DNA of 64,000 nt, taken from assembly GCA_903912525.1 (NCBI GenBank), contig CAIWHK010000032.1, positions 110,409-174,408 of the forward strand, in the 5' to 3' direction. Source of the stretch: an uncultured bacterium. GTDB taxonomy: Bacteria; Krumholzibacteriota; Krumholzibacteriia; LZORAL124-64-63. Under the pieces are notes generated by a model, which ran no database searches, had not been told where the DNA came from, and worked only from the letters and a program-made list of their open reading frames with translations. Shown in pieces: positions 24,315 through 52,337 of this stretch (its first letter is position 1; the number at the start of each line of letters is the position of its first letter). The position numbers and the translations under genes are program-made.

Positions 24315-25313
24315 TCAGACCTGCCGGTCCTCGGCGTAATCCTGCATGTACTTGAACGTCTTGCTGCACCGGATCTTCTCGAACGCCTCTTCCTTGATCT
24401 GGCGGATGCGCTCGCGCGTCAGGCCCATGATCTGCCCGATTTCCTCGAGCGTCAGTTCCTGATCCGTCCCGAGCCCGTAGTACAGCTTGAGAACCTTGGC
24501 CTCGCGGTCCTTCAGGTCACCCAGCATGCGCCCGATGCTCGTGTTCAGGTCGTCGTCCATCACCTTGGCGTCAGGGCCCTCGCTCCCCGTGTCCTCCAGG
24601 AAGTCGAGGTAGGTGCTGTCCTCGTCGTTGCCCACGAAATCATCCAGGAAGAAATTGTCCTGCATGAGGGGCAGTGTGTCCTTGACCTCGTCGACCGAAA
24701 GACCGAGGAACTTCGCGATCTCCTCCGGCTCCGGCTTGCGACGCAGCTTCTGCTGCAGCTCGCTGCTGGCCTTCTTGATCTGGTTCAGCACGCGCGCGCG
24801 GTTCAGCGGCATGCGAACGATCTTGCTGTGGTTCGCCAGCGCGGCCAGGATCGACTGGCGGATCCACCACACCGCGTACGAGATGAACTTGAAGCCGCGC
24901 GTCTCGTCGAAGCGCTGCGCCGCCTTCAGCAGGCCCAGGTTGCCCTCGTTGATGAGGTCCTCCAGGGGTACGCCGTAGTGCGCATATTCCTTCGCGATCG
25001 ACACCACGAAACGAAGGTTCGCCTTCACCAGCTTGTGCAGGCTCTCGTTGTCGTTGGCGTGGATGCCGCGGGCCAGTTCGCATTCCTCGTCGCGGGTCAG
25101 CAGCGAGTACGCCTTGACCTCCTGGAAGTACAGGTCGAGGTTGCTCATCAGCTGCGCAGCGGGAGCGGCCTGCTCCTGCGCTGCACGGGTGCCCCGGCGC
25201 GCCTTGGCGCGCGGGCGCGGGGCCGGCTTCACATTCGCCGTCGCAGCCGACGCTGCCTTGCCGCCGGCAGCAACCTTCTTCGCTGCCCGGACCTGCTTGA
25301 CCGCCTTGGCCAT
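24315..25313 (-). CDS. RpoD/SigA-family sigma-70 factor lacking region 1.1
   Basis: LVKANLRFVVSIAK, DLINEGNLGL, FKFISYAVWWIRQSI, TLEEIG..LTRERIRQI; Ala/Lys/Arg-rich N-tail. Confidence 0.93.
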   Translation of the reverse strand: MAKAVKQVRAAKKVAAGGKAASAATANVKPAPRPRAKARRGTRAAQEQAAPAAQLMSNLDLYFQEVKAYSLLTRDEECELARGIHANDNESLHKLVKANLRFVVSIAKEYAHYGVPLEDLINEGNLGLLKAAQRFDETRGFKFISYAVWWIRQSILAALANHSKIVRMPLNRARVLNQIKKASSELQQKLRRKPEPEEIAKFLGLSVDEVKDTLPLMQDNFFLDDFVGNDEDSTYLDFLEDTGSEGPDAKVMDDDLNTSIGRMLGDLKDREAKVLKLYYGLGTDQELTLEEIGQIMGLTRERIRQIKEEAFEKIRCSKTFKYMQDYAEDRQV

Positions 25314-25658
25314 GATCTGCCTCTTTTCGCGCTTGCCCATGTGGGGGCCCGGCGACCGGCGCCGGGATGTTGTTCTCGTTTCTTGATCGCCCTATTACAA
25401 GTTGCATACCACTGAAGTCGATTTCGGCGCACCTTTGTATACTTTTGCAACCTTCTCAATGCCAGCATGTTACGACGCTCACTGGCCGACTCTCGCGAGC
25501 CTGCCGGAGCACGCTGTTTCCGGCTTTGTCAATTTGTCAAAACGAGCCCGTCGTCCTCCGTCAGAATGTCAATGGACCTGCGCCTGCGGACGGTCTGGTG
25601 CCGCGCCCGGGCCCCTGTTACTGTTGGCCGCCGAACCACCAGCGAAAGCGGCTGCCCG

Positions 25659-29311: not shown

Positions 29312-29338
29312 TAAAGTCGCTCCCGTCCGGGCCGATCA
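29312..29338 (+). promoter_or_regulatory. Sigma-28 (FliA/SigD) promoter
   Basis: TAAA-N15-GCCGATCA, one mismatch to consensus, about 105 bp upstream of cheY. Confidence 0.75.
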
Positions 29339-29443
29339 CCTTGCTGCCCCGGGGAAGATCATGCCGGAACCGCGAGCCCGCCACCGGCGGGGCGCGATTA
29401 CGGTGAACAGGGTAGCGCCATCGGCGTTCCCGCGGAGGATCCT

Positions 29444-29830
29444 GTGAGCCACGCCGTCCTGATCGTCGATGACGCCGACTTCATGCGTGACATCCTGCGC
29501 GAAATCGTCCAGGACCTGGGTTGGACCGTCGCCGCCGAGGCGGCGGACGGTACGCAGGCGATCGCGCTCTACCGCCAGCAGAAGCCCGATCTCGTTCTGC
29601 TCGACATCACCATGCCCGGCATGGACGGCAACGAGGCGCTCCAGGCGATCCTCGAGCACGATCCTGCAGCCCGCGTGGTGATGATCACGGCTCTCGGCCA
29701 GAAAGAGCAGGTGCTGGCGGCGATCAAGCTGGGCGCCCGCGACTTCGTCATCAAACCGTTCGACACCGAACGCGTCGCGGCGACCCTCACCCGCCTGCTC
29801 GGCATGCCCCAGCCCGTAGGCGCGCCCTGA
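29444..29830 (+). CDS. cheY: Single-domain CheY-type response regulator
   Basis: VLIVDDADFMR, LLDITMPGMDG, ITALGQ, FVIKPF (resembles Bacillus/Thermotoga CheY). Confidence 0.82.
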   Translation: MSHAVLIVDDADFMRDILREIVQDLGWTVAAEAADGTQAIALYRQQKPDLVLLDITMPGMDGNEALQAILEHDPAARVVMITALGQKEQVLAAIKLGARDFVIKPFDTERVAATLTRLLGMPQPVGAP

Positions 29831-29867
29831 GCCGGAAACATCGACCGATCACAGCCCGCAGAACCGG

Positions 29868-30743
29868 CTAGTTCGCGCCGCGCTGTTCGCGCGCGGCGCG
29901 CGCCTGGCTGTAATGCAGGCGCGCCTGTTGCGGCATGCCCAGGGCGTCGCAGGTAAGTGCGAGCTGGTAGTGCAGGCGCCCGTCCTCGGGCGTGTATTCG
30001 AGAGCCTGTTCCAGCGCCAGACGCGCCTCTTCGTAGCGCTCCAGCTTGTGCAGGCAGGTCCCCAGGTAATACGGCACGCGAACCAGGCGTGGGTCCAGCT
30101 TCCACGCAGCCTCGAAACGCTTGCAGGCATCGGCGTACATACCGCACTTCATCAGGCACAGCGCCGCGTAGTACTGCCCGCGGGTGAAGCCGGCATCGCA
30201 GCCGAGCGCCCGCTCGAAACACTCCAGCGCGCGCGTGTATTCCGCCTCGCCGTAGTGCACGAGCCCGAGATTATGGTAACCCTCCGCATCGGGTTCGATG
30301 GCGATGGCCGCCTCGAAGGCACGGATCGCCTCCAGCGTTCGGCCGGCCTCGGCATAGATCGCCCCGAGGTTGTGGTGGGCCACCGCGCTGTCGTTGCCCT
30401 TTTGCGTGGAACGCCGGTACCACAGCACGGCCTCGTCGCGGCGACCGAGGCGGTCGCAGCACACGCCCAGGTTCGTCAGGTAGGCCGTCGCATCCGGCTG
30501 CAGTTCCACGGCCTGCCGCAGGACCAGTTCCGCGTCCTGCGGCTGGTCCAGCTTCATCAGCACGCAGCCCAGCCGGTACAGCCAGTCGTGGCGCCGGGAA
30601 TCCTCCGCCAGGGCCAGCTCATAGGCTCGGCGCGCTTCGTCCAGGCGACCGGCATTTTCAGCCAGGCGCCCATTCTCGAAAAGCGCGGCTCCCGACGGGT
30701 TGTCGTTCCCTTGGGGCCTGTTGTCTTGTTCGCGGGAAGTCAT
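29868..30743 (-). CDS. Cytoplasmic TPR-repeat protein (about 8 TPRs)
   Basis: Repeated YRLG, NLGV, HNLGA, HNLGL, YYLG helices; no signal peptide. Confidence 0.9.
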   Translation of the reverse strand: MTSREQDNRPQGNDNPSGAALFENGRLAENAGRLDEARRAYELALAEDSRRHDWLYRLGCVLMKLDQPQDAELVLRQAVELQPDATAYLTNLGVCCDRLGRRDEAVLWYRRSTQKGNDSAVAHHNLGAIYAEAGRTLEAIRAFEAAIAIEPDAEGYHNLGLVHYGEAEYTRALECFERALGCDAGFTRGQYYAALCLMKCGMYADACKRFEAAWKLDPRLVRVPYYLGTCLHKLERYEEARLALEQALEYTPEDGRLHYQLALTCDALGMPQQARLHYSQARAAREQRGAN

Positions 30744-30807
30744 TGCGGGAATCTAGCGGCCATGCCGACGATGGTCAATCGAGTTCGCTCTTCAGGCAGC
30801 AGCAACC

Positions 30808-31641
30808 CTACAGCGGGGATTCGTCGTCGATCACGACCTCCAGGAGCAGCCTTACCGGCTCCCTCCCCTGCAGGAGGCGCCTCGGGATACGCACCGGGAC
30901 GACCACCGACGGCCGCAGCTCGTGGTAGATGGCCTCACTCAACGCGCGGGTCGTCTCGCCGATTTCCGTGCCCGGCAGGGGCGGCCCGTAGTCCAGCCCC
31001 AACGGGCTGGCCGGCTCGGGCTGCGCCATGGGGGCCGGCTCGGGCGCCACGGGCACCAGCGCAGGCGCCGCCGCCGACGGGTTGGCCGCCAGGTGGTTCA
31101 CGGTCAGGCCGAGAATGGCCTTGAGGGTCTCGCGCGCGCCGTCTCCGTTGGCAGCGTTGGCGGGGAACGAGAGCAGCCCCCAGGGATTCAGGAGGCTCTC
31201 GAGGCGGTCCACGGGCAACGTGTCGGCCCGGTCACGACGGTTGTACTGGATGACGATGGGCACTCGCATGAGATCGAGGTCCCACGACTCGAGGTACGAC
31301 TTGAGTGCCTCCAGAGCCGCCAGGCTCTGGTCAAGCATGGCCGCACTGGAGTCCACGACGAACACGACCCCGTCAAACGGGGGATGCATGTCGCGGCCGG
31401 CGGCGCGCGGCCGCTCACGCCCCGCGTCGATGGCCTGCACGAGAACCTGCCAGTCACCCTGGCCCCCGTGCCGGACCCGGAAGGCGATCTGCCGCTCCGG
31501 ATCGTCCGTTGCCAGCAGCAGGCGCTGCTCCGGCGGGATCGACCGGTGGATCACCCTCAGGTTGGCGCGCTTGCCGGCGCTGGCGGGCCCGTAATAGAGC
31601 ACGCGGCAGGTCCGGGTGGCTGTCAGCTGCGAGGTGGTCAC
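30808..31641 (-). CDS. MglA-like small GTPase homolog with degenerate G motifs and C-terminal extension
   Basis: CRVLYYGPASAGKRANL, DGVVFVVDS, PIVIQYNRRD, ETLKAI parallel MglA CKIVYYGPGLCGKTTNL, DGVVFVADS, PYVIQYNKRD, DTLKAV. Confidence 0.82.
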   Translation of the reverse strand: MTTSQLTATRTCRVLYYGPASAGKRANLRVIHRSIPPEQRLLLATDDPERQIAFRVRHGGQGDWQVLVQAIDAGRERPRAAGRDMHPPFDGVVFVVDSSAAMLDQSLAALEALKSYLESWDLDLMRVPIVIQYNRRDRADTLPVDRLESLLNPWGLLSFPANAANGDGARETLKAILGLTVNHLAANPSAAAPALVPVAPEPAPMAQPEPASPLGLDYGPPLPGTEIGETTRALSEAIYHELRPSVVVPVRIPRRLLQGREPVRLLLEVVIDDESPL

Positions 31642-31707
31642 GGCACCCTTCCTGGGCTCACGGTTGGCAGCCCCGTCATCATGCCGGCGGCGCTGTCGGC
31701 CAGTTCA

Positions 31708-31723
31708 AGCAAGCCACGTGCCA
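31708..31723 (-). promoter_or_regulatory. Sigma-54 -24/-12 promoter
   Basis: TGGCACGTGGCTTGCT = full TGGCACG-N4-TTGCW consensus, 67 bp upstream of the MglA-like gene. Confidence 0.8.
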
Positions 31724-31779
31724 CGAAACAACAAGCATCTTCTTGTCATTTCATCAGATCACGCGCCGTCCCCGGCAAC

Positions 31780-31795
31780 GGGCAAGCATTTTGCA
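31780..31795 (+). promoter_or_regulatory. Possible divergent sigma-54 promoter
   Basis: GGGCAAGCATTTTGCA (GG-N10-GC with TTGCA) upstream of the 31874 ORF. Confidence 0.45.
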
Positions 31796-31873
31796 ACATC
31801 GACCGGGAATCACAGGGCAGTCCGGCACACGGGGCCACCCCGAAGACCGGCCACCACCCGGCAGGAGCAGTTC

Positions 31874-32317
31874 ATGACGACGACGAATACGGACAAGATC
31901 CTCAAGACCATGTTCTCGCGGTTGTTGCAGGTCGAGGTCGACGAGCCCCTGCTGCACAAGCTCTGTGCGGTCATCGACAGCGTCACCGAGCGCGTGGGCG
32001 GCAATTTCGACCTCGAGACCGTTCAGGGCCAAAACACCTTCCGGGCGCTGCTATGCTCGATGGTCGTCCACGGCTGGGGAAACGGCATGCACCCCTTCCA
32101 CAATCCGCAGACCAACCAGGACGGCAACCCCGTCGAGGTCCGGGTCAGCAAGGACATCCTGATGTCGATGCAGGACCTGCAGGCGCTGCGCTACGTGAAG
32201 AAGGACTCGCAGGGCCGGGTCAAGCAGGCCCTGTTCGAGCCCGACCACAACGTGCGGGTCCGCCAGCAGATCGACGACATCCTGTCGGAAATCAGCCAGG
32301 ACAAGTGGAATTCCTAG
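31874..32317 (+). CDS. Hypothetical cytoplasmic protein (147 aa)
   Basis: AGGAG RBS, strong GC3 codon bias, own terminator; no family recognised. Confidence 0.8.
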   Translation: MTTTNTDKILKTMFSRLLQVEVDEPLLHKLCAVIDSVTERVGGNFDLETVQGQNTFRALLCSMVVHGWGNGMHPFHNPQTNQDGNPVEVRVSKDILMSMQDLQALRYVKKDSQGRVKQALFEPDHNVRVRQQIDDILSEISQDKWNS

Positions 32318-32339
32318 CCGCTTCCGTCCGGAATTGAAA

Positions 32340-32375
32340 AGAGCCGACCGCACCGTCAATGGTGCGGTCGGCTCT
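32340..32375. terminator. Bidirectional intrinsic terminator
   Basis: AGAGCCGACCGCACCG-TCAA-TGGTGCGGTCGGCTCT with an A-run on the left and ATTT on the right, between convergent genes. Confidence 0.88.
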
Positions 32376-32393
32376 ATTTGTCCGTCCGAGAGA

Positions 32394-32957
32394 TCAGAAT
32401 ACCTGAGTGCCCCCCGCCAGAATCTCGTTCAGGGCATCACGGAAGTACTCGGTGGAACCGGCCACCTCGGGCGTGACCTTGTCCTTGTACAGCTCCCACG
32501 ACTTCTTGATCTCGGGACCGAGCGCCTCCAGCAGGTTGCCGTCGGCAAGCGCCCTCTCGTAGACCTCGCGGTTGTAGACCTTGATGTCCGACACGAGGGC
32601 GCGCGCGAGCATCTCTTCCTTGCTCCGGCGACGGCGGGTCTGGACAGGCTGGTCCATGACTGCCGTCCCGGTCGGCGCGCCCGGCCGCTCGAGTGACGCG
32701 GCAGGTGCGAACGTCGCCGCCGACGCCTGCGCGCGAGGCGCCAGGCCGACAGGCTCGAACGGGTCAGCCACGGTCTGGACCGGCTCGGGAGCCCTGGTCA
32801 CAGCCTCCACGGCCTCTACTGCCTCCGTCTCGCGCGCGGTCCCGTCCAGGACGAAGACCCCGCGACAGGACGGGCAACGGACGCGGACCTGGCGCGGCGG
32901 CACGCGCTCGGGATCCAGGCGATAGCGCGCGTGGCAATCGGTGCACGAGGTGATCAT
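32394..32957 (-). CDS. MJ0042-type zinc-ribbon protein with C-terminal RomX-like domain
   Basis: CTDC..YRL..VRCPSC zinc ribbon, Ala/Pro linker, then LARALVSDIKVYN...YKDKV...FRDALNEIL; AAGGAG RBS. Confidence 0.78.
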   Translation of the reverse strand: MITSCTDCHARYRLDPERVPPRQVRVRCPSCRGVFVLDGTARETEAVEAVEAVTRAPEPVQTVADPFEPVGLAPRAQASAATFAPAASLERPGAPTGTAVMDQPVQTRRRRSKEEMLARALVSDIKVYNREVYERALADGNLLEALGPEIKKSWELYKDKVTPEVAGSTEYFRDALNEILAGGTQVF

Positions 32958-33005
32958 CAACCCGCTCCTTTGGGATGGCTGGAAACCGGACTCCGGGCCC
33001 GTCAG

Positions 33006-33032
33006 GTTTCGGCCGCTGCCGTCAGGAATTTA
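33006..33032 (-). promoter_or_regulatory. Sigma-28 (FliA/SigD) promoter
   Basis: Minus strand TAAA-N15-GCCGAAAC, 49 bp upstream of the zinc-ribbon/RomX-like gene. Confidence 0.65.
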
Positions 33033-33041
33033 GCAAAGATT

Positions 33042-34258
33042 GGGTTGTGCCATCGAGATTGTGTCTGGCCCGGGCCATGCCCGGGCCAGACATGAAACAC
33101 ACCGACGATTCATTCAATCCGCCCCACTGCCCAAACGCCAAATGCCAATTCCACGGGCAGTTGCACGCGGGTTGGCGCTTCAAACGCATTGGCACCTTTG
33201 AGCGACAGGCCGCCCCACACTGTATCCAGCGGTTCCTCTGCCTTCACTGCCACCGGTCTTTCAGCACCCAGACCTTCTCGACCACTTACTGGCTCAAGCG
33301 CCCTGATGTCCTGCCCCAGCTCCTGACCAAAACCAACGGCTGCATGGCAAACCGACAGATCGCCAGGGACTTGAGGGTCGCCCCCTCGACCATCGACGGG
33401 CAGCTCGCCAGGCTCGGCCGCCATTGCCTGCTCTACCACGCGGAGCGGATGACGACGGCGGTTCCGGTGAGCCGCGTCGCCATCGACGGATTCGTCACCT
33501 TCGAGCACTCCCAGTTCTGGCCGTTCCATCACCACCTGGCCGTCGAGCCCGAATCGGATTTCATCGTCTACTTCACCGACAGCGAGGTCCGCCGTTCCGG
33601 ATCCATGACGCCAGCCCAGAAGCGCAAGCGCGAACGATTGGAGACCGCTCTGGGCCGACCGGACCCGAAGGCGGTGTACAAGGATGTGAAGCACCTGCTC
33701 GAGGTGGTGGCCGGCAGCCAGCCGCACCTGACCATTTTGAGCGATGAGCATCGGACCTATCCGCAGGCGATCAAGTCACTTGGGTGTGCAGTGACACATC
33801 TGGTGACCTCGAGCAAGGAGCGCCGCGATGCCGGCAACCAGCTGTTCCCGGTAAACCTGGCGGATCTCCTGCTGCGGCACAGCAGTGCGAACCACAAGCG
33901 TGAGACGATCGCTTGGTCGAAGCGTCGGCAGGCGAGCGCGGAGCGGCTGGCGATATTTCTGGTCTGGCGGAACTACATGAAGAGCCGACGGGAGAAGCGG
34001 CCCCGAGGGCCGACGCCGGCCGAGGTTCGGGGGATTGTCGATCATCGAGTTACGGTCGAGGAGTTGCTGGAGCAGCGGATCTTCGTCAGTCGGACCAGCC
34101 TGCCCGCGCGGTGGGTCGACTACTATTGGCGAGAGATTGAGACAAGGGCTCTTCCGCAGCAGCGGCGGCACGCGCTCAGTTACGCGGCCTGATCTGCGAA
34201 AGAGAACCGGCCGCGCCCTTCTGCTGCGCGGTCGGACACAATTTCAGCGGCACAACCC
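33042..34258 (+). mobile_element. Insertion sequence (1217 bp) with 24-bp imperfect terminal inverted repeats
   Basis: Left GGGTTGTGCCATCGAGATTGTGTC (33042-33065) versus right GACACAATTTCAGCGGCACAACCC (34235-34258): 20/24 complementary; encloses one transposase; no target duplication seen. Confidence 0.85.
33092..34192 (+). CDS. IS1/IS1595-like transposase (Zn ribbon + HTH + DDE-like core)
   Basis: CPNAKC..RFLCLHCHRSFS, HTH RQIARDLRVAPSTI, VAIDGF, ILSDEHRTY, LLRH..HKRETIAWSKR. Confidence 0.8.
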   Translation: MKHTDDSFNPPHCPNAKCQFHGQLHAGWRFKRIGTFERQAAPHCIQRFLCLHCHRSFSTQTFSTTYWLKRPDVLPQLLTKTNGCMANRQIARDLRVAPSTIDGQLARLGRHCLLYHAERMTTAVPVSRVAIDGFVTFEHSQFWPFHHHLAVEPESDFIVYFTDSEVRRSGSMTPAQKRKRERLETALGRPDPKAVYKDVKHLLEVVAGSQPHLTILSDEHRTYPQAIKSLGCAVTHLVTSSKERRDAGNQLFPVNLADLLLRHSSANHKRETIAWSKRRQASAERLAIFLVWRNYMKSRREKRPRGPTPAEVRGIVDHRVTVEELLEQRIFVSRTSLPARWVDYYWREIETRALPQQRRHALSYAA

Positions 34259-34269: not shown

Positions 34270-35229
34270 TCAGGGGCGGTAGACGAGGTCAGCGACCAGT
34301 CGGCCGGCCTGCTGGAGTGAGGCCGCCGAGCAGAATTCCGGCCGGTCGGCTGTGGTATGCCAGCGCGGGTCGTCGAAGTCGATCAGGTCGACGGCAGGCA
34401 CGCCCGCCTGCAGGAACGGCACGTGGTCGTCGTAGACCTGCCGCCCCGGGACGGGCTCGAACATGTCCAGCCCCAGGCCGGCGGCCCGCTCGAAGACCGC
34501 GGCGGTCCAGTCCGGGGCCAGCGCCAGCGAGTAGCCTTCCTGCGGAACGCGCGCACCGGCCCTGCCGACCATGTCCAGCAGGACCAACCCGCGGCAACGC
34601 GTCGCATCCAGCGGGCTGCCGAATGCCCCCAGCGACGCCGCCAGATACCGGCTTCCATGGCAAAAACCTGCGGCATCGTGCTGCCGACCCGAATCCTCGG
34701 CGTCCAGGAACAGGAGGTCGACGCCCCGGGGCGGCGGCGATGCTCCCAGCAACTCGATCAGGTGCAACAGAACTGCCGTGCCGCTGCCGCCGTCGTTGGC
34801 GCCGGGAACGGGCTCGGTACGGCGGGCAGGCACGGGATCCTGGTCCGCCCATGGTCGCGTGTCGTAGTGCGCCGCGAGCCACAGGCGCTCGCCTCCCTCG
34901 GGCCCTGCCGAGACAATGATGTTGCAGGCGTCGACACCGCTGCCCTTCGGCCCCAGCGGAGCGCTGAAGTGCTGTTCGCTGACCCTGAGGCCGGCCTTGC
35001 GCGCGGCGTCGATGACCATGGCGCGCAGGGCCAGGTTTCCCGCCGAACCAGGCGTCCGCGGACCGAGCGCACATTGCCGGCGAACAAGGTCCAGGGCGCG
35101 GTCTCCGGAAAACGCGGGCACGGCAACCGGTGCCCCTGCATGCGCCGGCGCAATGACAGCCGCCCCGAGGACTGCAGCCACGGCCAGCCCGCGCAAACGG
35201 CGCGCAACGAATGGCGTCCTAGAAAACAA
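34270..35229 (-). CDS. M28-family zinc enzyme, glutaminyl cyclase-like
   Basis: Signal peptide; GPRTPGS, AAHYDTRPWADQD, GANDGGSG, LDAED, LLDMVG, DDHVPF, WHTTAD; overlaps sprA stop. Confidence 0.85.
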   Translation of the reverse strand: MFSRTPFVARRLRGLAVAAVLGAAVIAPAHAGAPVAVPAFSGDRALDLVRRQCALGPRTPGSAGNLALRAMVIDAARKAGLRVSEQHFSAPLGPKGSGVDACNIIVSAGPEGGERLWLAAHYDTRPWADQDPVPARRTEPVPGANDGGSGTAVLLHLIELLGASPPPRGVDLLFLDAEDSGRQHDAAGFCHGSRYLAASLGAFGSPLDATRCRGLVLLDMVGRAGARVPQEGYSLALAPDWTAAVFERAAGLGLDMFEPVPGRQVYDDHVPFLQAGVPAVDLIDFDDPRWHTTADRPEFCSAASLQQAGRLVADLVYRP

Positions 35230-38200
35230 AAGTCGCCTCCACTCCGAGGCCGAGAGTCGTGCTGTGCTGTCCGGTGGCGATGTTGTTGCTCCGGGCGAAT
35301 TTGAAACGGAGCGCCCCGTTCAGGTTCTTGGATATCTGGTATGTAAAGCGCGGGTCCAGGCTGAGGCGCTTCTGCCCTGTCGGCGCCGTGTCCGCGAAAC
35401 CGGGATTCACACGGTCGGTCCGGTCCGACTGGTACGCCAAGTCGACGTCAAGCGTAACGTTCTGGCTCGAGCCGGGTCGGTACAGGCCCATCTTCGCCAG
35501 GAACTGCTCGGCGCGGAACTGGTGGCGCACCTGCAGCCCGTACCTCGCCTGGTTGGTCTTGGTCATGACGCCGTTGCCGCGCACCTCGTCCCACTTCAGG
35601 TTCGCATTGAGCGTCGCCGACAAACCACTCGGGAAGGTGAACGACCAACGGGGCTGGACCGTCGTCGAGTAGGTCGGACTGAAGACCGTCGCAGTGTAGC
35701 CGTTCACCGTCAGGCTCTTCTTGTAGCCGACATTGAAGCTGGACGAACGGAACCAGCCTTCCCCCTCCTTGCCGCCTCCGCCAAGCAGTCGCCACTTCTC
35801 GATACCCGACAGGGAAACCTGGACGTCGGGCCACTCCTCCCGCAGGCTGCGCGATTCCGAACCCACTTGTTCCCGCACGGTGTTGTTGCTGGCATACTTG
35901 AGATCCAGCGACAATTGCCGGGTCAATTTCGTGTTGGTGGCCAGGGTCACGGACTCCTGTTCGTCGAAGCCGCGCGCCGCAAACCGCGTTGCGTCGACAT
36001 CGAGTCCTGACGTGAAGCCGGCCTCGTACCAGAAGCTCGCCGGATCCAACAGGCGGACGTAGCTGCTGTTCCGCCGCCGGGTCAGCGTCACCTTCACCGG
36101 TTGCGTATTGCGCAGGGCCGAGACAAACGGCTCGACCAGCGTGCGCGGCCCGAAGCCGTGGCCAGCGCCGGTCGTCGCCTCAGAGGCGGGCGGCGGCCCT
36201 GCACCCGGGACGACGACACCGGTCGCCGCGCCGCCGCGCTGCTCCTCCTGCTCCCGCGCGATCCGTTCCTCGGCGGCCGCGATGAGCCGTTCATCCTCGC
36301 GGCGCTGCCGCTCATCGGGCGTCAGCAGCAGGTCGTCTTCCGCGGCAACGGGTGTCGTCGCCCTCGTCTCCGGCGTACCGGCGCCTCCCCGGGACTGCGC
36401 CGTGTCGCCGACCGCGGGTGCCGTATTCGGCATCGTCGGCGACGCTCCGGGAGGCCGGCGGGATTCGCGTTCCTCGAGGCGGCGCTGCTGCGCGAGCATC
36501 TGATCGCGCTGGGAATCGGACCGGCGCTGCTCAGGGAAGACGGCCTTGACGGCATCACCGACGGGCACCTGCAACCGCAGGTCCCAGCCGCCCGAATTGG
36601 ACACCGAACGCACACCTTCGGGATCACCGGGCTGGCGTGTCGCCGGATCGTGAATGTCGGCGAATCCCCCTGTGAACTGCAGCGAAGGATTGAGCCGGTC
36701 GACCAGGCGCAGGGCCAGCCGGGCCGGCACGAGGAACGGGCTGGACGACAGCTTCACGCCCTTGGGCGGCGCGAAGGTGATGCGCAGGTCGTAGCTCCGC
36801 CGGTTCTCCTGGCCGATATTGACGCCGCCCACCTTCTCCTCCCGCATCAGGTCACGGTCGGAGTTCACGCCGAACGCGATGTCGGCGATCGACAACGGGG
36901 AATAGTCCAAGGCCCCGGTGAGCTTGCCGATCCGCTTGCGGTCGACCGGGCGCACCGTCACCAAACCGTTCTCGGCGATCGTCGTGGTCGCACCCTCCGT
37001 CGAACTGAAGCTGGCGCCGAGGGCGACGCGACGAGGCACGACGGAAAGGCCCTTGATGATCGGGAACCAGCGGAACACCGGATAGGCACCAAGGGTGTAG
37101 GAGCCCTGGATGCGAAGGTCGAAATTCAACGAGCCCTGCAGGCTCTTGCTGCGGAGGAGCTGCAGAGGGCTGTCCGTCTTCTCGCGCGAGCCGCTCAACT
37201 GCACGGACCAGGGGTCGACCATGTATCGCAGCAGCGCCGCCTTCGCCGGGGTGTGGTTGAGGCGGGCCGAGAACTGCTCGCGAGTGGAGATCGTCGACAT
37301 CGCCGACAGCATGTCGGGGTCGATGATCTCGATGTCGCTGTTCGTGACGTACTTCGGCCGGTCAATCGACTGTCGGCGGCTTCCGTTGACAGGCAACCGG
37401 AAGCCGGCCAGCGGCAGAAAGTCCTCGACATTAAAGCTGTTCGTCAGGTTCCACTCGCCCTTGTCGACACCGCTGCCGGTGCGCTTATCCAAGCCGTGGT
37501 ATTCGTCGTCGGTGTGACGCCAGTCGAAATCGACCTTGAAGACGTCGGCCATGTTCAGGCGCACGCCGGCGCGCTCGGCCACGCCCTGGTCCCGCTTGAT
37601 CCCCTCCAGCCTGACGTCATTGATGTAGAAGTACCCGTTGGCCGGTGCGCTCAGGGCGTTGTTGGCCACGCAGACGAAATAGCGGCGGACCCGACGCAGG
37701 TCGGGACGGCCGACGACCCGGACGCGGTACTCGTCCCCCGACTCCATATCGGGCACGATCGCATGCAGGCTTCCATCCTCGGCCAGGTCGCCCGTCTTCG
37801 CGTTCGACAGCTCGGCAAGGCCGATCGAGGACCGGTGCCAACCGGTCTTGGCGGCACCGTCGCTGAAGCGGTAGGCCACCTCGTAGTAGTTGAGCGAGTC
37901 GGCGCCGACCCGGAACAGCAGGTCGAGGTCGGCGGTGCCGTGCGACGGGTTGAACCAGTACCATGACATGTTCCGGTAGCTCGTGTAGTCGTCGCCGCGC
38001 GGAGAGACCTGCTTGCTGATGCGCATCAGGTGACCGCGTTCGAGGTCCTGGAAGTTCAGGACCAGCGACTGCTCCTTGTCCGGGATGTTGTTCTCGACAT
38101 GCACGCTGAACGGGGGCGAATAATCGGGGTTCTCCTTGTTGTTCACTTCGCCGAGGAAGAACTCCTCGTCCGGCAGCCGTTCACCGCGGCTGAGCAGTTG

Positions 38201-41200
38201 TTCGCCGTCGATGCGGCGGACGCCCTCGCGTTCCCACCGGCTGCCCAGGAAACGGAGGTCCGACAGTTGCAGGTGGACGGTCGACGGCGCGCCGGCAGTC
38301 TCGTTCTCGTACCAGACGCGCGCGTGCGTCACCGCCTTGATGTTGGCGACCGTTCCCGCCGAGACCGAATCGAGCGCGGCAAGCGGGATGCGGTACTTAC
38401 GCCAGGCGATCCCGGCCGCCACGAGATCCCCGACGTTGTCGTAGTCACGCACGACGTCGACCAGAGCCGGCGTTTCCTTCAGGTCGATCGCCACGGTGTA
38501 GAAGCCGTCATCCTTGTCCAACCGCCCGTTGGCGTTCAGGTCCTCGGTATCCTCGCGGTTGTTGCGCGCGGTGTTGTTGATGCGCGGGAACGGGTCGTCG
38601 GCGCCGACGAAATCGGCGTCATAGAGCTTTCCATCGGAAGCATCGCCGTCCAGGCCGATGTCCTCGTCATAGGTCCACACGCCGTCAGGCTGGTTGTTGA
38701 CAATGCCGTCTTCCCGCTGGAGCGAATCGGTGACCAGGTTGCCTTGCGTATCCTTGGGCCAGAACCCGTCCTCGTTGATGTAGCCGAAATCGAAGTGCAG
38801 TGTTCCCGACCGCAGGGTCGTATCCGGCACTGCATCGTTGACCCAGACCTCCACGAACTGCGACTTCGACAGGTCCAGCCCGGTCCGGCTGATGCCGCGC
38901 ATGATGCCGCCCCAGTTCTCCGGTCTCCAGAGGCCGTCGGCGCGCAGGTAGAGATCCATAGCCGTCTGGGTCTCATCCCGCTCCTGGTTGACCAGGTCCG
39001 GGTTCAGGTAGCGCCGCAGCACGCGCTCCTTGGGCAGGAACCAGCGCAGCGTCGGGACACGATCCTCGGGCTCGAACTTCCGCGAGTCGATATGTTCGGT
39101 CAACCAGCCGGCTCCCAGTATGGGCTGACTGGCCCACGACCAGCCCAGGCGGTTGAGGGAGACCATGTCGGAGGCGTCCACGCCCTCGAAGTCCTCCAGG
39201 TAGACCTGGCCCTTGGTGTTTGGGTTGGGCATGCTGAGCGCCAGCTCACCCAGAAACTGGAGGCTGCTTTCGCGCTCTGAGTCGTTCCGGCTGAGGAAGT
39301 TCGCCACCGACGTCAGGAACCGCGGCTTGAACGTGTGCAGCAGGTTCACGTTGCCGACCATGTTCTTGCTCGGCTCCTCGCCCAGCTTCGCTTTCTCGCC
39401 GACGATCGCCTCGCTCTGGTACAGCAGGCTCGTCGCCAGCTTGCTGTCGCGCCCGAGGTCGTAGCCCAGGCTGAGGCCCATCAGGCTGGTGTTCCCGCCG
39501 CCCATGAACGGCGCGAACTGGTAGTCGACCGAGATCTTGCTGTCGGCCGTCAGGTTCGCGGCATCACCCTTCAACTGGATCTCGCCGAAGGTGTAGTCGA
39601 TCTCGTAGTCCACGTTGCGTGTCAGGGTCCGCCCGTCGACAGTGACCGTCTCCGAGCCTTCCTCGATATTCGAGGCGCCCAGGCTGATGCTGCTGCTGGC
39701 CGCCGCGTGGCGGGCCACGATGTTGAATTCGCTGTGGGTGACCAGTTCGCTCTGCTGGGTATCCTCGGCGTAAATGCGGCTGAGGCCGGCGATGCTCAAC
39801 TGCAGGAACGTCCCCGTCCACGCGAAGTTCTCCACGTCGGCGTACTCCGCGTACTTCTCCGGCGGCGCGTTGAACGGCTCGGGAAAATCGAGGGGGAACT
39901 TCAGCAGCCCCTTCACGAGGTCGATCAGGTACGGGTTGTCGGCGTCGGCGAGCCCGTCATGTATCGTCTCACCCTGCGGGTTGGTCCGGTCCAGGCCGAA
40001 GACGCGGATGTAGTCGATCTTGTTCGCGCTGTCCTGCGCCGGCTGGCTACTGCCGGGATCATTCTTCTCGATGCGCAACTCGAACGTGGCAGGATCGATG
40101 TTCGCGCCGCCCAGCGAATAGATGTTCCGCAGCACGTACTTGAAGACGTGCGGAACCGTGTCCGTGGACAGCGACTTCAGGAGCTTCATGCGGTAATAGC
40201 TGCCGGTGCCGCCGGTGACGGTCTGCACCGGCGAGCCGATGACCTCGGGATTGTCGCCGATCCGTGCGACTTCGCCGCCCTGCGCGTCCTCGACGATGTA
40301 GACCACAGCCAGCACGTCGGAGGCGTCCATCTGCGTGCGCATGTCGATGGCGATGAGACCGCCGTTGCTGTCGAGCATCGGGTCGAACGCCGTATATTCA
40401 CGCCAGCGCGGGCCGTAATCGTGCGGCGCGGTAAAATCGATGCTGCCGTCACCCCACGCCCCGAAGCCGAGGCTGTCGACATAGACCGCCACGTTGGAGA
40501 TGTCACCGGGCTGGAACGTCCCGGTGGGCATCAGTTCGAACACCTTGACCGAACTGTACCGGATGCGCTCCCCGTTCCGGCGCCCGAAGGGCTCGGACTC
40601 GGGCAGGTCGAGGCGGAAGAAGCGGTTGTTGAGGTACGCGTACGCGGGGATGATGTTGTCGGAAACCTGCCCACCCTTGGCGTTGAACTGCTTGGAACTG
40701 GACTCCGCCTTCTGCTTGGACGCGACGACGGTGAATTCGGCGCGCCCGACCTGGCCGGTGACCTTAACGCCGAACAGGCCGGATTTGTTCGAGCTGTAGC
40801 CCATCAGCTGGCTGCCCGGCAGGGTCAGGCCGACGTCGCCCGTTTCGATCGTCTTGATGATCTCGTCGTCCAGGCCGCGGTACATCAACTTGATCTTCGT
40901 GGCGTCCGGGCCCATCTGCTGGCTGTTGTGGTCGACCTCGAGGATGATCTTCTCGCCGATGGTGCCCGAGAGGTTGATCGACAGCTGCTGCTCCATGTCG
41001 AGCGTCGGGAACAGGGACTGGCTGCTGACGCGCTCGCTGGCGACGAACGGCTTGGTCACCGTGCTCTCGCCGCTGAGGGCGATGTGCTCGCGTCCAGTGA
41101 TCTTGATCTGGGTCTTCTCGCCCTTGCCGATGATCTTCTCGAGTGTGCGCGGCAGCTTCACGGGAATCGTCAGGTTGATCAGGCCCGAGTCCTGCGTCCC

Positions 41201-41809
41201 CTTGGATCCACCAGTCACGTTCAGCGCGTCGGTCCGTCCGAGTGTCGTCGCCACGGTATAGCTGCGCAGCGAGTAGGCGCCGATGTCGTCGACGAACAGG
41301 TCCACCACGTCGTCCCCAACCGGTCGCGGCGGGTACCACGTGAACCCGCCGGGCAGGGTGTCGGCGAGAGGCATCAGGTTGAAGTAGCGCGGGTGCCTGA
41401 CCCGGGTGACGATGCCCAGCAGGTCATTGTATTCGACCAGGCTCTCCTGCCGCACGAGATCGACGTTGGCGCGCTGGCGCCACTGGCGACGCCAGATCGT
41501 GGACGCGTCCGGCTGCCGTCCCGGCTCGCGCAGCGGATCGACACCCTGCCGGAGCAGGCGCTCCCGCAGGATCAGGCGCTCAGGGCCAAGGAGGCGCGGG
41601 TCATCCGTGGTCCGCAACAGGACGTCCAGGCCGGGCACCGGCGCGCCGGCTGGCGCGGCCGCGTCGACGGGCGCATCACTCTGGGCCTGGGCCCCCGCCG
41701 GCAGGCACGCGAACCACGCCAGGGCAGCCACCACGGACCACAGCCGGCAACCGGCGGGGAACCAGCCCCGCCAACATGGGTTTCCGAGCCTGCCAGATGA
41801 CCGGGACAA
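35219..41809 (-). CDS. sprA: Type IX secretion translocon SprA/Sov homolog (about 2200 aa)
   Basis: LDMEQQLSINLSGTIGEK, IKLMYRGLDDEIIKTIETGDV, GLFGVK, SETVTVDGRTLTRNVDYEIDY, WGGIMR, EDLNANGRLD, beta-barrel C-terminus ending in F; TTG start after AAGGAG. Confidence 0.9.
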   Translation of the reverse strand: MSRSSGRLGNPCWRGWFPAGCRLWSVVAALAWFACLPAGAQAQSDAPVDAAAPAGAPVPGLDVLLRTTDDPRLLGPERLILRERLLRQGVDPLREPGRQPDASTIWRRQWRQRANVDLVRQESLVEYNDLLGIVTRVRHPRYFNLMPLADTLPGGFTWYPPRPVGDDVVDLFVDDIGAYSLRSYTVATTLGRTDALNVTGGSKGTQDSGLINLTIPVKLPRTLEKIIGKGEKTQIKITGREHIALSGESTVTKPFVASERVSSQSLFPTLDMEQQLSINLSGTIGEKIILEVDHNSQQMGPDATKIKLMYRGLDDEIIKTIETGDVGLTLPGSQLMGYSSNKSGLFGVKVTGQVGRAEFTVVASKQKAESSSKQFNAKGGQVSDNIIPAYAYLNNRFFRLDLPESEPFGRRNGERIRYSSVKVFELMPTGTFQPGDISNVAVYVDSLGFGAWGDGSIDFTAPHDYGPRWREYTAFDPMLDSNGGLIAIDMRTQMDASDVLAVVYIVEDAQGGEVARIGDNPEVIGSPVQTVTGGTGSYYRMKLLKSLSTDTVPHVFKYVLRNIYSLGGANIDPATFELRIEKNDPGSSQPAQDSANKIDYIRVFGLDRTNPQGETIHDGLADADNPYLIDLVKGLLKFPLDFPEPFNAPPEKYAEYADVENFAWTGTFLQLSIAGLSRIYAEDTQQSELVTHSEFNIVARHAAASSSISLGASNIEEGSETVTVDGRTLTRNVDYEIDYTFGEIQLKGDAANLTADSKISVDYQFAPFMGGGNTSLMGLSLGYDLGRDSKLATSLLYQSEAIVGEKAKLGEEPSKNMVGNVNLLHTFKPRFLTSVANFLSRNDSERESSLQFLGELALSMPNPNTKGQVYLEDFEGVDASDMVSLNRLGWSWASQPILGAGWLTEHIDSRKFEPEDRVPTLRWFLPKERVLRRYLNPDLVNQERDETQTAMDLYLRADGLWRPENWGGIMRGISRTGLDLSKSQFVEVWVNDAVPDTTLRSGTLHFDFGYINEDGFWPKDTQGNLVTDSLQREDGIVNNQPDGVWTYDEDIGLDGDASDGKLYDADFVGADDPFPRINNTARNNREDTEDLNANGRLDKDDGFYTVAIDLKETPALVDVVRDYDNVGDLVAAGIAWRKYRIPLAALDSVSAGTVANIKAVTHARVWYENETAGAPSTVHLQLSDLRFLGSRWEREGVRRIDGEQLLSRGERLPDEEFFLGEVNNKENPDYSPPFSVHVENNIPDKEQSLVLNFQDLERGHLMRISKQVSPRGDDYTSYRNMSWYWFNPSHGTADLDLLFRVGADSLNYYEVAYRFSDGAAKTGWHRSSIGLAELSNAKTGDLAEDGSLHAIVPDMESGDEYRVRVVGRPDLRRVRRYFVCVANNALSAPANGYFYINDVRLEGIKRDQGVAERAGVRLNMADVFKVDFDWRHTDDEYHGLDKRTGSGVDKGEWNLTNSFNVEDFLPLAGFRLPVNGSRRQSIDRPKYVTNSDIEIIDPDMLSAMSTISTREQFSARLNHTPAKAALLRYMVDPWSVQLSGSREKTDSPLQLLRSKSLQGSLNFDLRIQGSYTLGAYPVFRWFPIIKGLSVVPRRVALGASFSSTEGATTTIAENGLVTVRPVDRKRIGKLTGALDYSPLSIADIAFGVNSDRDLMREEKVGGVNIGQENRRSYDLRITFAPPKGVKLSSSPFLVPARLALRLVDRLNPSLQFTGGFADIHDPATRQPGDPEGVRSVSNSGGWDLRLQVPVGDAVKAVFPEQRRSDSQRDQMLAQQRRLEERESRRPPGASPTMPNTAPAVGDTAQSRGGAGTPETRATTPVAAEDDLLLTPDERQRREDERLIAAAEERIAREQEEQRGGAATGVVVPGAGPPPASEATTGAGHGFGPRTLVEPFVSALRNTQPVKVTLTRRRNSSYVRLLDPASFWYEAGFTSGLDVDATRFAARGFDEQESVTLATNTKLTRQLSLDLKYASNNTVREQVGSESRSLREEWPDVQVSLSGIEKWRLLGGGGKEGEGWFRSSSFNVGYKKSLTVNGYTATVFSPTYSTTVQPRWSFTFPSGLSATLNANLKWDEVRGNGVMTKTNQARYGLQVRHQFRAEQFLAKMGLYRPGSSQNVTLDVDLAYQSDRTDRVNPGFADTAPTGQKRLSLDPRFTYQISKNLNGALRFKFARSNNIATGQHSTTLGLGVEATFVF

Positions 41810-42057
41810 ACGCGGGATCTCCTTGATGGCGCGGAGTCGGCCGGCAAAATACTGCTGGTCCGGCCGTCGCCCGTCTACGAAAATGGTCAGGCTGTGCCCT
41901 CGGAGGGGCCCATCCTTCCGGCTCCCGCACCGGGAGTCGTGAAAAGTCCGGCTCGGACAGGCCATCCCGGAACGCTCGGCACCCGGTTCGCCGGACGTCG
42001 GCGACGGGGCGCACGCGGCCTCAGCGGCTTGCCGCCGCCACAACCACGAAAGCGTCT

Positions 42058-50658: not shown

Positions 50659-51422
50659 GTCAGCACCCCCAGCGCCCAGCCCGCGATCGCGCCGGCGCCG
50701 ACCCAGCGCCAGTGCCGACCGACTCCGTAGCGCTCCAGGACCGCTCCCACGCCCAGCGCGGAGGCGAGCACGGGTACCCAGGCCATCGCGCCCCTCAGCC
50801 CCGCCGGAAGCGCCTCGAAGGCAGGCACCCACAGCCCCGCCATCGCCAGCACGCCCACTCCGCCGTAGAGCACGCCGCGCACCAGCGTGGCAGCCAGGCA
50901 TCGCCCGTGGATTCTCTCCACCCGCGAGAGGTTCCCGTCGCGCAGCGTCCGGCGCCCCTGCAGCATCCAGATGAGATGCAACCGGCGCTCGGCCTGAATC
51001 AGGGGATGCCCACCGAGGCTCCACAGGGCTGCCCCCAACAGCAGCCAGCCGGTCAGCGCCAGATCACCGCGCGGCGCCCCTTCGGTCAGGCCGTGGAACC
51101 CCCCGAGCGCCGCCGGCACCTTGCCGGCGAGAATCGCGCCGCCCACCGCGGCCACGGCGCCGGCCGAGGCGTCCCCGGTCACCGTCTGGCCCACGGGAAG
51201 GTTCATCACCAGCGCGAGCTGGAGCGGCAGCCCGACAGCCAGCCCGAGCAGCGGATGTCCGCACACCAGGCCCGCCACCGCGGCGGCCGGCAAGGGTTGG
51301 CTCAGCCAGGTCTGCCCGAGCGCCGTGTCATCGAGCGCGAGCAGACCCGACAACAAAGCCAGCCAGCCCAGGAGCGCCCAATGCGCCCCGGTGAACCCGC
51401 CCATCATGTCGATGGCGGTCAC
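50655..51422 (-). CDS. PTS mannose-family IIC component (divergent)
   Basis: LD..GQTWLSQPL..GL..G..LQL..PVG; position between IIB and IID. Confidence 0.8.
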   Translation of the reverse strand: MTAIDMMGGFTGAHWALLGWLALLSGLLALDDTALGQTWLSQPLPAAAVAGLVCGHPLLGLAVGLPLQLALVMNLPVGQTVTGDASAGAVAAVGGAILAGKVPAALGGFHGLTEGAPRGDLALTGWLLLGAALWSLGGHPLIQAERRLHLIWMLQGRRTLRDGNLSRVERIHGRCLAATLVRGVLYGGVGVLAMAGLWVPAFEALPAGLRGAMAWVPVLASALGVGAVLERYGVGRHWRWVGAGAIAGWALGVLT

Positions 51423-51916
51423 AGGCGCGGCTCCATGGCGGCCAGTTGCTCGGCTCCCAGCACATGCTCGCGCCCGCCAGGGACCTGCTGTGCGTAAAGG
51501 GTCAGGCCCGCGACCAGAAGGCGGCGCATCGCCTCGATGTCCAGCCTGTCGATGAAGACGAAAGGAAGCATCTCGACCTTGCCCGTCCCAAAATGCATCC
51601 CGCCGATGTTCACCGACGGCAGCGGCGCGCCGAGATGGGCCAGGTCGCTCATTTCAGCGGGTGTCGCGGTCAGGACGATGATGCGTTCGCTGACGGTCTC
51701 GCCGCCGCGCAGCGCCGCCGCCGCGCGGGCCAACGACAGGACCGAGACGGCAATGGAAGGCGGCACCGAACTGGCGTAGACACGGCTCTGCCAGGGGTCG
51801 GCGGCGATTTCGTTGCTGGCCAGGATGATGCGATCCGGGCGCAGGCGCTCGCTCCAGCCGACGGTGACCTGCCCGTGGATCAGGCGGTCGTCGACGCGGG
51901 CCAGGACGACGGGCAT
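51419..51916 (-). CDS. PTS mannose-family IIB component
   Basis: RVDDRLIHGQV, VNIGGMH, QQVP. Confidence 0.94.
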   Translation of the reverse strand: MPVVLARVDDRLIHGQVTVGWSERLRPDRIILASNEIAADPWQSRVYASSVPPSIAVSVLSLARAAAALRGGETVSERIIVLTATPAEMSDLAHLGAPLPSVNIGGMHFGTGKVEMLPFVFIDRLDIEAMRRLLVAGLTLYAQQVPGGREHVLGAEQLAAMEPRL

Positions 51917-52312
51917 CTAGCGGCCCCCGACCAGCGTGATCGCCTCGCGACCCTTGCGCACGAGGCGACTGACGAGTTCGTCGAACTCGTCGTTCTCGCG
52001 CCAGGTCAGGAAGCCGAGCAGCATGGCGAGGTTCACCCCGCTGATGATGGCCCGCCCCGGCTCGTGGCCGCAGGCCAACTGGGCAGCCGTGGCGCAGCTG
52101 CCGCCGTAGTCGTCGACGAGGATCACGCCGCCCGGAGAGCCGGTCGCGCTCCCTTCCTCCAGCCAGGCCGTGAGATCGGCCTTGAGGTCGGGCAGCGACT
52201 TTCCGCTGTTGCTCATGGCCGTCAGGCCCTCGACCGGTCCGAGGATGAGCCCGGTGACCCGCACCAGTTCGGCGCCGATGTTCCCGTGCGTGATGACAAG
52301 GCAGCGGATCAT
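51917..52312 (-). CDS. PTS mannose-family IIA component
   Basis: ITHG, LVDDYGGS, ISGVNLAMLL. Confidence 0.92.
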   Translation of the reverse strand: MIRCLVITHGNIGAELVRVTGLILGPVEGLTAMSNSGKSLPDLKADLTAWLEEGSATGSPGGVILVDDYGGSCATAAQLACGHEPGRAIISGVNLAMLLGFLTWRENDEFDELVSRLVRKGREAITLVGGR

Positions 52313-52337
52313 CCCGCCATCCTTCCCGCGGAGCGCG

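Follow-up and report, generated by a model that had tools for sequence, protein, structure and literature searches.

The stretch of DNA analysed here, hereafter the window, comprises 64,000 nt of contig CAIWHK010000032.1 of assembly GCA_903912525.1 (positions 110,409-174,408, forward strand), and at positions 29312..33032 it holds a module of five genes, two of which encode relatives of the polarity proteins MglA and RomX of Myxococcus xanthus. Going by the names of the module's homologs, which their source databases label Candidatus Krumholzibacteria or Krumholzibacteriota, the phylum carrying it is Krumholzibacteriota. The forward strand holds cheY (29444-29830), for a stand-alone receiver of 128 aa, and a gene for a 147-aa protein of no known family (31874-32317); the 233-aa open reading frame (ORF) considered as the extent of the latter is too long, orthologs starting at the Met at 31874. 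The reverse strand holds the gene of a 277-aa MglA-like protein (30808-31641) and, 64 nt downstream, that of a 291-aa cytoplasmic tetratricopeptide repeat (TPR) protein with about seven repeats (29868-30743), as well as the ZnR-RomX gene (32394-32960), whose 188-aa product has an N-terminal zinc ribbon (ZnR) and a C-terminal RomX-type domain. The 147-aa and ZnR-RomX genes converge on a hairpin (32340-32375, 15-bp stem) that resembles a bidirectional terminator. Since the TPR gene is co-directional with the MglA-like gene, the five genes form four transcription units; gene calls and strands thus confirm what an earlier note on this DNA had proposed, namely five small genes in four units within 3.7 kb.

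Protein families were assigned with Pfam and NCBIfam models, and the PDB was compared by sequence (phmmer) and by predicted fold (Foldseek). Relatives were followed in 28 loci from the family of the window genome (the own family), chosen for holding an ortholog of the MglA-like gene, and in 20 further loci centred on the 147-aa gene, which come from eight other families and one more genus of the own family. The genome sample comprised 151 genomes across nine families, 60 of them from the own family; L, G and f denote loci, genomes and families, respectively.

The ZnR-RomX protein opens with a ribbon of the MJ0042/ZitP/GltJ type (residues 2-37; 32850..32957, reverse strand), which scores 48.6 bits with the Pfam model Zn_ribbon_4 against a cut-off of 30.3 and whose profile matches 2nb9 (E 1.1e-5) and the zinc ribbon of GltJ, 7zok (E 7.2e-4). 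A Pro/Ala-rich linker (residues ~40-108), variable among orthologs, leads to a three-helix domain at residues 111-188 (32397..32630, reverse strand). Residues 111-181 match residues 5-75 of RomX (8ZNA) with an E value of 3.8e-9, and a profile made from 16 orthologs reaches 7.6e-12; the C-terminal domain, which the earlier note had taken for RomX-like, is on these matches a true RomX-type domain. In section 10 of a preprint (10.1101/2024.02.20.581209), RomX mutants in R11/R14 and in D19 are reported to lose exchange activity. The equivalents of R14 and D19 are R120 and D125 here, and both are near-invariant: they are kept in 15 own-family alignment rows and in 17 loci of families f1 and f3-f9, and changed in the row of family f2 (L061). 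Likewise, the helix-1 motif LAR(A/V)LVSDI is kept in f1 and f3-f9, including a genome devoid of the MglA paralog (G131, LARALVSDI there), and loses its Asp in f2. This family has no canonical mglA; some members are without any MglA and some keep an intact tailed MglA. The loss of the Asp points to canonical MglA as a client of the RomX domain, a weak hint given that a single evolutionary event is concerned. In the window genome the RomX-type domain is single, a tblastn search having returned no second RomX-like match, and its sole carrier may serve canonical MglA.

The 277-aa protein is a member of the MglA family, as judged from both sequence and predicted fold. By phmmer its best PDB match is MglA (E 8.8e-18), followed by Sar1/Arf (Sar1 2.9e-3), and by Foldseek all of ranks 1-12 are MglA structures (E 4e-14 to 9e-13), with Rab7 after them (5.6e-9); the G domain, about residues 10-190, is modelled with pLDDT above 90. 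A disordered Pro/Ala linker separates it from a conserved C-terminal motif of 30 residues, VVVPVRIPRRLLQGREPVRLLLEVVIDD. The nucleotide-binding motifs look dead: the protein has GPASAGKR where MglA has GxxxxGKT, departing from the P-loop pattern GxxxxGK(S/T), PERQIAFRV for DRTLFFDF in switch I, AIDAGRE for TVPGQ in switch II, and NRRD for NKRD in G4, departing from N/TKxD. The residues lost in its clade are the P-loop Thr, the switch-I Thr, the switch-II Gln and the Lys of NKxD. The earlier description of a degenerate MglA is therefore apt for this MglA-family paralog with its inactive-looking GKR/DAGR/NRRD motifs, and most likely the protein no longer cycles GTP.

The degeneration is shared by most of the own family. 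GKR together with a varied G4 (NRRD, NGRD, NRRP, NRRA, NQSA, NRTG and others, down to loss of the Asp) is found in 25 of the 28 own-family orthologs, whose loci are also devoid of a gene with an HATPase_c_2 domain; three deep-branching loci of the own family (L053-L055) keep GKT/S, NKxD and that gene. In other families, GxxxxGKT and NKxD are kept by 16/16 tailed MglAs, which have the same C-terminal motif. L048, L050 and L057, with ORFs that are truncated or doubtful, were not included in a maximum-likelihood tree of 60 G domains. Separate clades in it are formed by canonical MglA (support 98/93), by the tailed MglAs from other families (94/94) and, on a very long stem, by the own-family module proteins (100/100). 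GKR requires one change, on a single branch (support 93/91), and the paralog apparently became a GKR pseudoGTPase once in this clade. Because its stem is so long, the placement of the own-family clade is unsure, and the case for its orthology to the tailed MglAs found elsewhere in the phylum is made by synteny and by the tail they have in common. Outside the module, locus L060 (G084:C92, 2448-3038) encodes a third kind of MglA-family protein, of 196 aa, with GKT/VPGR/NKRD and a very long branch.

Degenerate as it looks, the gene is still maintained in the genus, under purifying selection and not dead. Against four congeners its ratio of nonsynonymous to synonymous substitutions (dN/dS) is 0.075-0.165, similar to that of the TPR gene, with 0.037-0.071 for the 147-aa gene, values that are rough because dS amounts to 0.5-1.2. 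An intact ORF with the conserved tail motif is present in 25/28 own-family loci, the exceptions (L048, L050 and L057) being perhaps broken genes or faults of ORF extraction.

The best conserved of the five proteins (62-97% identity) is the one of 147 aa, whose gene is single-copy in 149/151 genomes. Among 1.84 billion representatives, only 25 representative clusters match it at E <=1e-3, all names found being 'hypothetical protein', and searches gave no Pfam or NCBIfam match and no usable match in the ESM Atlas. Its AlphaFold2 model (pLDDT 80.8) has a best Foldseek E value of 0.29 against the PDB, and VIA-align over 48,161 chains gave a best Z of 7.4, a weak match to sigma-factor region 2 that covers N-terminal helices 1-72 only and lies within noise. 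The protein is thus seen as phylum-restricted and without a recognised family, as far as sequence tells, and a new fold is not claimed. The TPR protein has 7 TPR_2 stretches and generic matches only: the MamA, LcrH and Tgl models remain below their cut-offs, and the PDB matches are engineered consensus TPR and OGT. The cheY product consists of a receiver domain only (Pfam Response_reg, E 1.9e-31, 109 bits) and is closest to known CheY proteins: Thermotoga maritima CheY is the best PDB match (E 1.9e-32), the top seven rows are all CheY (to 8e-30), and the acceptor residues DD at 9-10, D54, T82 and K103 can be read in the translation. It may accordingly be called a CheY by its sequence features; the NCBIfam models remain below equivalog cut-offs (115.8 vs 200), and the next-best paralog in the genome is 39-42% identical.

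Synteny across relatives, which the earlier note had proposed as a check, speaks for a genuine cluster: the five genes follow one another in identical order and orientation in 28/28 own-family loci, flanked by a DUF4139 gene in 23/28 and an M28 peptidase gene in 18/28, flanks that are lost outside the own family. In the further loci the ZnR-RomX and 147-aa genes are adjacent in 20/20, a tailed MglA is nearby in 16/20, and TPR-gene matches are nearby in 16/20, some of them to other TPR genes. A receiver gene lies nearby in 11/20, usually inside the MglA-TPR operon; it shares 29% identity with the window CheY and finds its best PDB match in a Thermotoga TrrA-type regulator. Since this is a different protein, and a chemotaxis-type cheY (>=50% identity) is a neighbour in only 1/20 of these loci, the latter may be regarded as a family-specific layer rather than as part of the core. 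A sixth gene stands between the ZnR-RomX and 147-aa genes in 16/20 further loci and in 4/30 loci of the first set, for instance at L081:7399-8310 (reverse strand), L083:9750-10679 (reverse strand) and L087:5169-6002 (forward strand), and also in L053-L055 and L061. Its product of 277-309 aa starts with ~150 residues devoid of any Pfam family even at E 10, so that a receiver-like N-terminal half, also considered, is unsupported, and continues with an RsbW-like HATPase_c_2 domain. In most lineages the gene is co-directional with ZnR-RomX and just downstream of it; in the GKR clade it is lost. In two families, at L083:5779-9283 and L087:7668-9701, genes for a lipid A acyltransferase, a GT4 glycosyltransferase and an MFS protein lie between the tailed MglA and 147-aa genes, in L083 co-directionally with the latter. 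In sum, the ZnR-RomX and 147-aa genes are the core of the module, and the cluster in the window is a family-specific, reduced form of a phylum-wide module.

Two kinds of promoter motif accompany the cluster. The MglA-like and TPR genes are preceded by the sigma-54 motif TGGCACGTGGCTTGC (31709..31723, reverse strand), an exact TGGCAC-N5-TTGC, 82 nt upstream of the MglA-like start; allowing for up to one mismatch, it is kept 57-99 nt before the start in 28/28 own-family loci, and within 300 nt in 13/16 loci of other families. A second sigma-54-like element, GGCAAGCATTTTGC (31781..31794, forward strand), lies 80-93 nt before the 147-aa gene and differs from the consensus in two places, the first T and the C of GGCAC; the window holds no other match of its type, 0/100 shuffles have one, and it is kept as xGGCA(A/G)Gxxxx(T)TTGC, with at most two mismatches, in 26/28 own-family loci. 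The pattern TAAA-N15-GCCGATAA of sigma-28 (FliA) has, with at most two mismatches, only two matches in the 64 kb, both in the right orientation: TAAAG-N14-GCCGATCA (29312..29338, forward strand; one mismatch) about 105 nt before cheY, and TAAAT-N14-GCCGAAAC (33006..33032, reverse strand; two mismatches) 46 nt before the ZnR-RomX start. Like motifs occur before cheY, at the same place, in 15/28 own-family loci and before ZnR-RomX in 17/28, mostly 71-77 nt from the start, and are practically absent outside the own family. As in shuffled sequence at least two sigma-28-type matches occur in 15/100 cases and at least six loose sigma-54 matches in 44/100, counts alone are not rare, and the weight of the motifs rests on their placement and on their conservation in relatives. 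A sigma-70 scan gave a single weak match, at 30778-30750 (reverse strand), between the MglA-like and TPR genes.

The factors that would read these motifs are encoded in the genome. The rpoN gene lies in the window (53962-55446, reverse strand), and the genome has 18 Sigma54_activat matches at E <=1.7e-27, none adjacent to the module. A fliA gene (262 bits against a cut-off of 189.6) adjoins flhA, and a flagellar gene set is present. The strict sigma-28 consensus has, with at most one mismatch, 8 sites in the 4.29-Mb genome, the cheY site among them, and of the five flagellin genes two have TAAAG-N14-G(T/A)CGAT and a third has the -10 element GCCGATAA; the flagellin-gene motifs are an internal positive control. 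The sigma-54 and sigma-28 promoters are hence both predicted from a motif, a sigma-factor gene and either activators or flagellar genes, and the motifs pointed out in the earlier note gain credit from their conservation and from rpoN, fliA and the flagellar genes; sigma-54 control, in particular, is predicted to be ancestral and phylum-wide. Another of the 8 best sigma-28 sites, on contig C39 of G000 near 14669 (forward strand), precedes an ORF with the N-terminus …GFTLMEIV…, prepilin-leader-like by eye. As to expression, four metatranscriptome runs, two of which are from one sample, hold contigs with 150-216-nt pieces of the TPR, MglA-like, 147-aa and ZnR-RomX genes, which differ from the module genes at 0-9 positions; DNA carry-over is possible, and the contigs carry no strand or start information. 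Two contigs of the same sample stop at 32986/32987, 26-27 nt upstream of the ZnR-RomX start codon, which is no more than a weak hint.

The earlier note had spoken of a rewired switch with no local MglB, and had advised a search of the genome for mglB, romR, fliA and flagellar genes. At the locus the statement holds, for no mglB lies within four genes of the MglA-like gene, the distance that defines 'coupled' genes in PMC4316618; yet a canonical mglB-mglA pair is found on another contig, C6, where MglA has 194 aa and intact motifs and where mglB, beside it, is the only Roadblock match of the genome. While fliA and the flagellar genes are also present, the layout of RomR, a receiver followed by a Pro-rich tail of >=120 aa, was not found among 54 receiver ORFs in a crude architecture search, to which a divergent RomR could be invisible. 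Six T2SSE-type ATPases are encoded in the genome.

Other genes of the window deserve mention. A 405-aa ORF (32975-34192, forward strand, likely start ~33092) is flanked by the ZnR-RomX promoter region and the M28 peptidase gene and has weak matches to N-terminal zinc-binding domains of IS1/ISL3 type (NCBIfam E 1e-3); with at least four more near-full-length copies at 80-87% identity in the genome, plus fragments at contig ends, it looks like a mobile element, and among 30 related loci it recurs only in L043, where it lies elsewhere, separating the 147-aa gene from ZnR-RomX. SprA/Sov, the outer-membrane translocon of the type IX secretion system (35219-42043, reverse strand; 2274 aa; TIGR04189, 492 bits vs 200), is encoded two genes away from the module. 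A chemosensory set 23 kb from the module (370-6737, reverse strand) comprises CheB (370-1470), a methyl-accepting chemotaxis protein with Tll0287-like and HAMP domains (1480-3567) and a CheA-CheW-receiver hybrid (3807-6737). A PDZ-GAF-SpoIIE (PP2C) phosphatase (16292-18811, forward strand) and an RpoS/RpoD-like group-2 sigma factor (24315-25340, reverse strand; below all equivalog cut-offs) lie within a few kb of the module and might take part in partner switching. The neighbourhood of rpoN (51419-55446, reverse strand) includes a hibernation factor (53368-53895), HPr kinase (52338-53327) and EIIA/EIIB genes of the phosphotransferase system.

What may such a module do? Tentatively, and with slightly less than even confidence, we regard the cluster as the partly decayed local form of a phylum-wide cytoplasmic module whose likely job is to set or switch where at the pole motility organelles are placed, or how they are used; its anatomy is well supported, and the function in polarity or motility is what we infer by analogy. 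The RomX domain, which keeps the Arg and the Asp needed by RomX, would dock through helix 1 onto an MglA-type G domain, and the zinc ribbon would be a second, switchable docking site, as in GltJ, where, according to the text consulted of PMC11135422, MglA-GTP binds the linker and frees the ribbon, which then recruits MglB. The TPR protein would be a scaffold or effector, perhaps one that holds the MglA paralog by its conserved acidic tail, and the 147-aa protein a lineage-specific partner. The tailed MglA, where kept in the window's clade, would act as a nucleotide-independent scaffold, real switching falling to the canonical MglA/MglB pair elsewhere in the genome, for which a single RomX-type candidate for exchange or recruitment was found in the genome, ZnR-RomX. 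In the flagellated own family, FliA-type promoters stand before both cheY and the ZnR-RomX gene, so that the module would be co-produced with late flagellar and chemotaxis genes; the entry of these two genes into the FliA regulon hints that polar motility organelles are what the module places or switches.

Several observations weigh against this reading. No interaction between the module proteins was shown in this analysis; a three-chain co-folding run, in which the full MglA paralog was the partner of the 147-aa protein and of RomX-domain residues 105-188, scored 0.00 against a mark of 0.32, an uninformative result from a design unlike the calibration of the tool and with its controls not folded. 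The MglA paralog was not found in 22/60 own-family genomes, where the best E belongs to canonical MglA or to nothing, and G131, the sole such locus examined, has a clean gap between the 147-aa and TPR genes; the paralog is therefore dispensable. Four f2 genomes are without any MglA-family match, and since the loci of two of them, G001 and G005, still hold the ZnR-RomX, 147-aa and TPR genes, the core can work without MglA. FlhA was found in only 86/151 genomes (family f8, 0/9), against 149/151 for the 147-aa gene, and with sigma-28 motifs missing outside the own family a flagellar role is not ancestral; the tie to a flagellar hierarchy and CheY, claimed in the earlier note, thus stands in the flagellated own family and falls in others, which have a different receiver and no sigma-28 motif. 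The RsbW-like HATPase_c_2 gene, part of the module in most other families (16/20 loci), is a hint of partner switching instead of polarity. No SgmX-specific similarity of the TPR protein was found with the Pfam and NCBIfam models and the PDB, searches that included no SgmX sequence or model, returned generic, consensus-like TPR matches only and lent no support to the proposed likeness to SgmX. Finally, the equivalent of RomX R11 is a Met (M117), and the ZnR-RomX protein ends 7 residues past the aligned region, at a conserved ...ILAxGxxVF end; it hence has no counterpart of the RomX tail with the Trp that contacts the receiver domain of RomR (RomR-REC), the contacting residues being L75, R76 and W87 of helix 3 and the C-terminal part according to section 8 of the preprint (10.1101/2024.02.20.581209).

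The part played by the paralog is where a first alternative departs: ZnR-RomX would act only on canonical MglA/MglB, and the 277-aa pseudoGTPase would be a vanishing remnant outside the circuit. Its absence from over a third of the own-family genomes fits this view, as do the intact helix 1 of G131, the freely drifting G4 motif and the very long stem of the clade; along the same line, the helix-1 Asp is lost only in f2, the family without canonical mglA, though some of its members keep an intact tailed MglA. This last pattern is, however, a single evolutionary event, and a remnant would hardly be expected to show a dN/dS within the genus as low as that of the TPR gene, an intact ORF with its tail motif in 25/28 own-family loci and a sigma-54 motif in all 28. 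The remnant explanation is thus judged improbable, if worth keeping in view.

A second alternative holds that the module is a general signalling or partner-switching device, for sigma-factor or envelope control, in which the MglA and RomX domains are mere interaction modules unconnected with polarity or motility. The HATPase_c_2 gene between the ZnR-RomX and 147-aa genes speaks for it, joined by the persistence of the module where FlhA was not found and in genomes without MglA, by the lipid A acyltransferase, GT4 and MFS genes inserted in some versions, and by the faint alignment of the N-terminal helices of the 147-aa protein with sigma-factor region 2. Yet the kinase-like gene is lost in exactly the window's clade, the own family shares its sigma-28 motifs with its flagellin genes, and polarity or motility is the role of every MglA and RomX characterised in the literature consulted; we consider the general device unlikely. 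That the genes are neighbours by descent only, cheY being a flagellar chemotaxis regulator with the usual FliA promoter and the others unrelated to it, is very unlikely: the synteny does take in the unrelated DUF4139 and M28 peptidase flanks, and a chemotaxis-type cheY is a neighbour in the own family and at one of the 20 further loci, but those flanks are lost outside the own family where ZnR-RomX and the 147-aa gene stay together in 20/20 loci and the tailed MglA and TPR genes each in 16/20, MglA and RomX are a known functional pair, and the divergent promoters have one control region in common.

The placement or switching of polar motility organelles is, then, the reading retained. A bolder form of it, in which the pseudoGTPase is a maintained scaffold in a polarity module, the 147-aa protein a new partner or regulator of MglA/RomX, and the own family couples a sigma-54/sigma-28 hierarchy to Ras-like polarity, is improbable as a whole.

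Polarity control by MglA and RomX has been worked out almost wholly in Myxococcus. What is added here is an uncultured phylum in which RomX is kept as one domain of an adaptor with a zinc ribbon, together with an additional MglA that bears a tail and is under the control of sigma-54, a gradation found in nature that leads from intact GTPase through pseudoGTPase to gene loss, and a small, strongly conserved 147-aa protein that always travels with the ZnR-RomX gene. It bears on how RomX-type domains recognise G domains, on the role of bacterial pseudoGTPases and on how a Ras-like switch is wired into flagellar control, and the small, soluble proteins lend themselves to binding, nucleotide and exchange assays that need no culture. 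The earlier note knew of no such system outside myxobacteria and Bdellovibrio. In that breadth the statement cannot be kept, since a wide distribution of MglA/MglB and the existence of orphan paralogs, SofG among them, are on record (PMC4316618), and RomX-fold proteins with Zn fingers have been noted (10.1101/2024.02.20.581209); as regards the module itself it stands, for literature searches on Krumholzibacteriota motility, on bacterial pseudoGTPase/MglA and on RomX found neither the module nor a sigma-54-controlled tailed MglA, an MglA-family pseudoGTPase or the 147-aa family.

Compared with the MglA/MglB/RomR/RomX system of M. xanthus, the Krumholzibacteriota module has in common an MglA-family G domain, a RomX-type domain with the helix-1 Arg and Asp and, elsewhere in the genome, a canonical mglB-mglA pair. 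It differs in that RomX stands behind a zinc ribbon and a linker and is without the stretch of the RomR-REC-contacting Trp, in that the MglA next to it is a long-tailed orphan paralog whose motifs look dead, and in its sigma-54- and sigma-28-type promoters and additional 147-aa protein. No RomR-like protein was found here by the crude architecture search of 54 receiver ORFs; RomR is reported to have a narrow distribution, and it was through co-occurrence with RomR that RomX was discovered (PMC9481161).

MglA of Bdellovibrio reportedly works with a TPR protein and RomR, and here too a TPR gene adjoins the MglA-like gene. Like that protein and SofG of M. xanthus, the window paralog is an MglA-family member encoded without mglB, as listed in the portion consulted of PMC4316618; unlike them, described as active GTPases, it has GKR for GKT and is without the switch-II Gln.

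As for the RomX-type domain, section 6 of the preprint (10.1101/2024.02.20.581209) reports that RomX-fold models retrieved by Foldseek are often joined to receiver and Zn-finger domains. The domain kinds are the same, as judged from the main-text description of predicted models that are listed without genomic context, and here the zinc ribbon and RomX are united in one protein without a receiver. The closest parallel in architecture is GltJ (AgmX) of M. xanthus, which likewise combines a ribbon of the same type with a variable, flexible linker and a C-terminal protein-binding domain; ZnR-RomX, by comparison, is small and soluble, and its C-terminal domain is of the RomX type instead of GYF.

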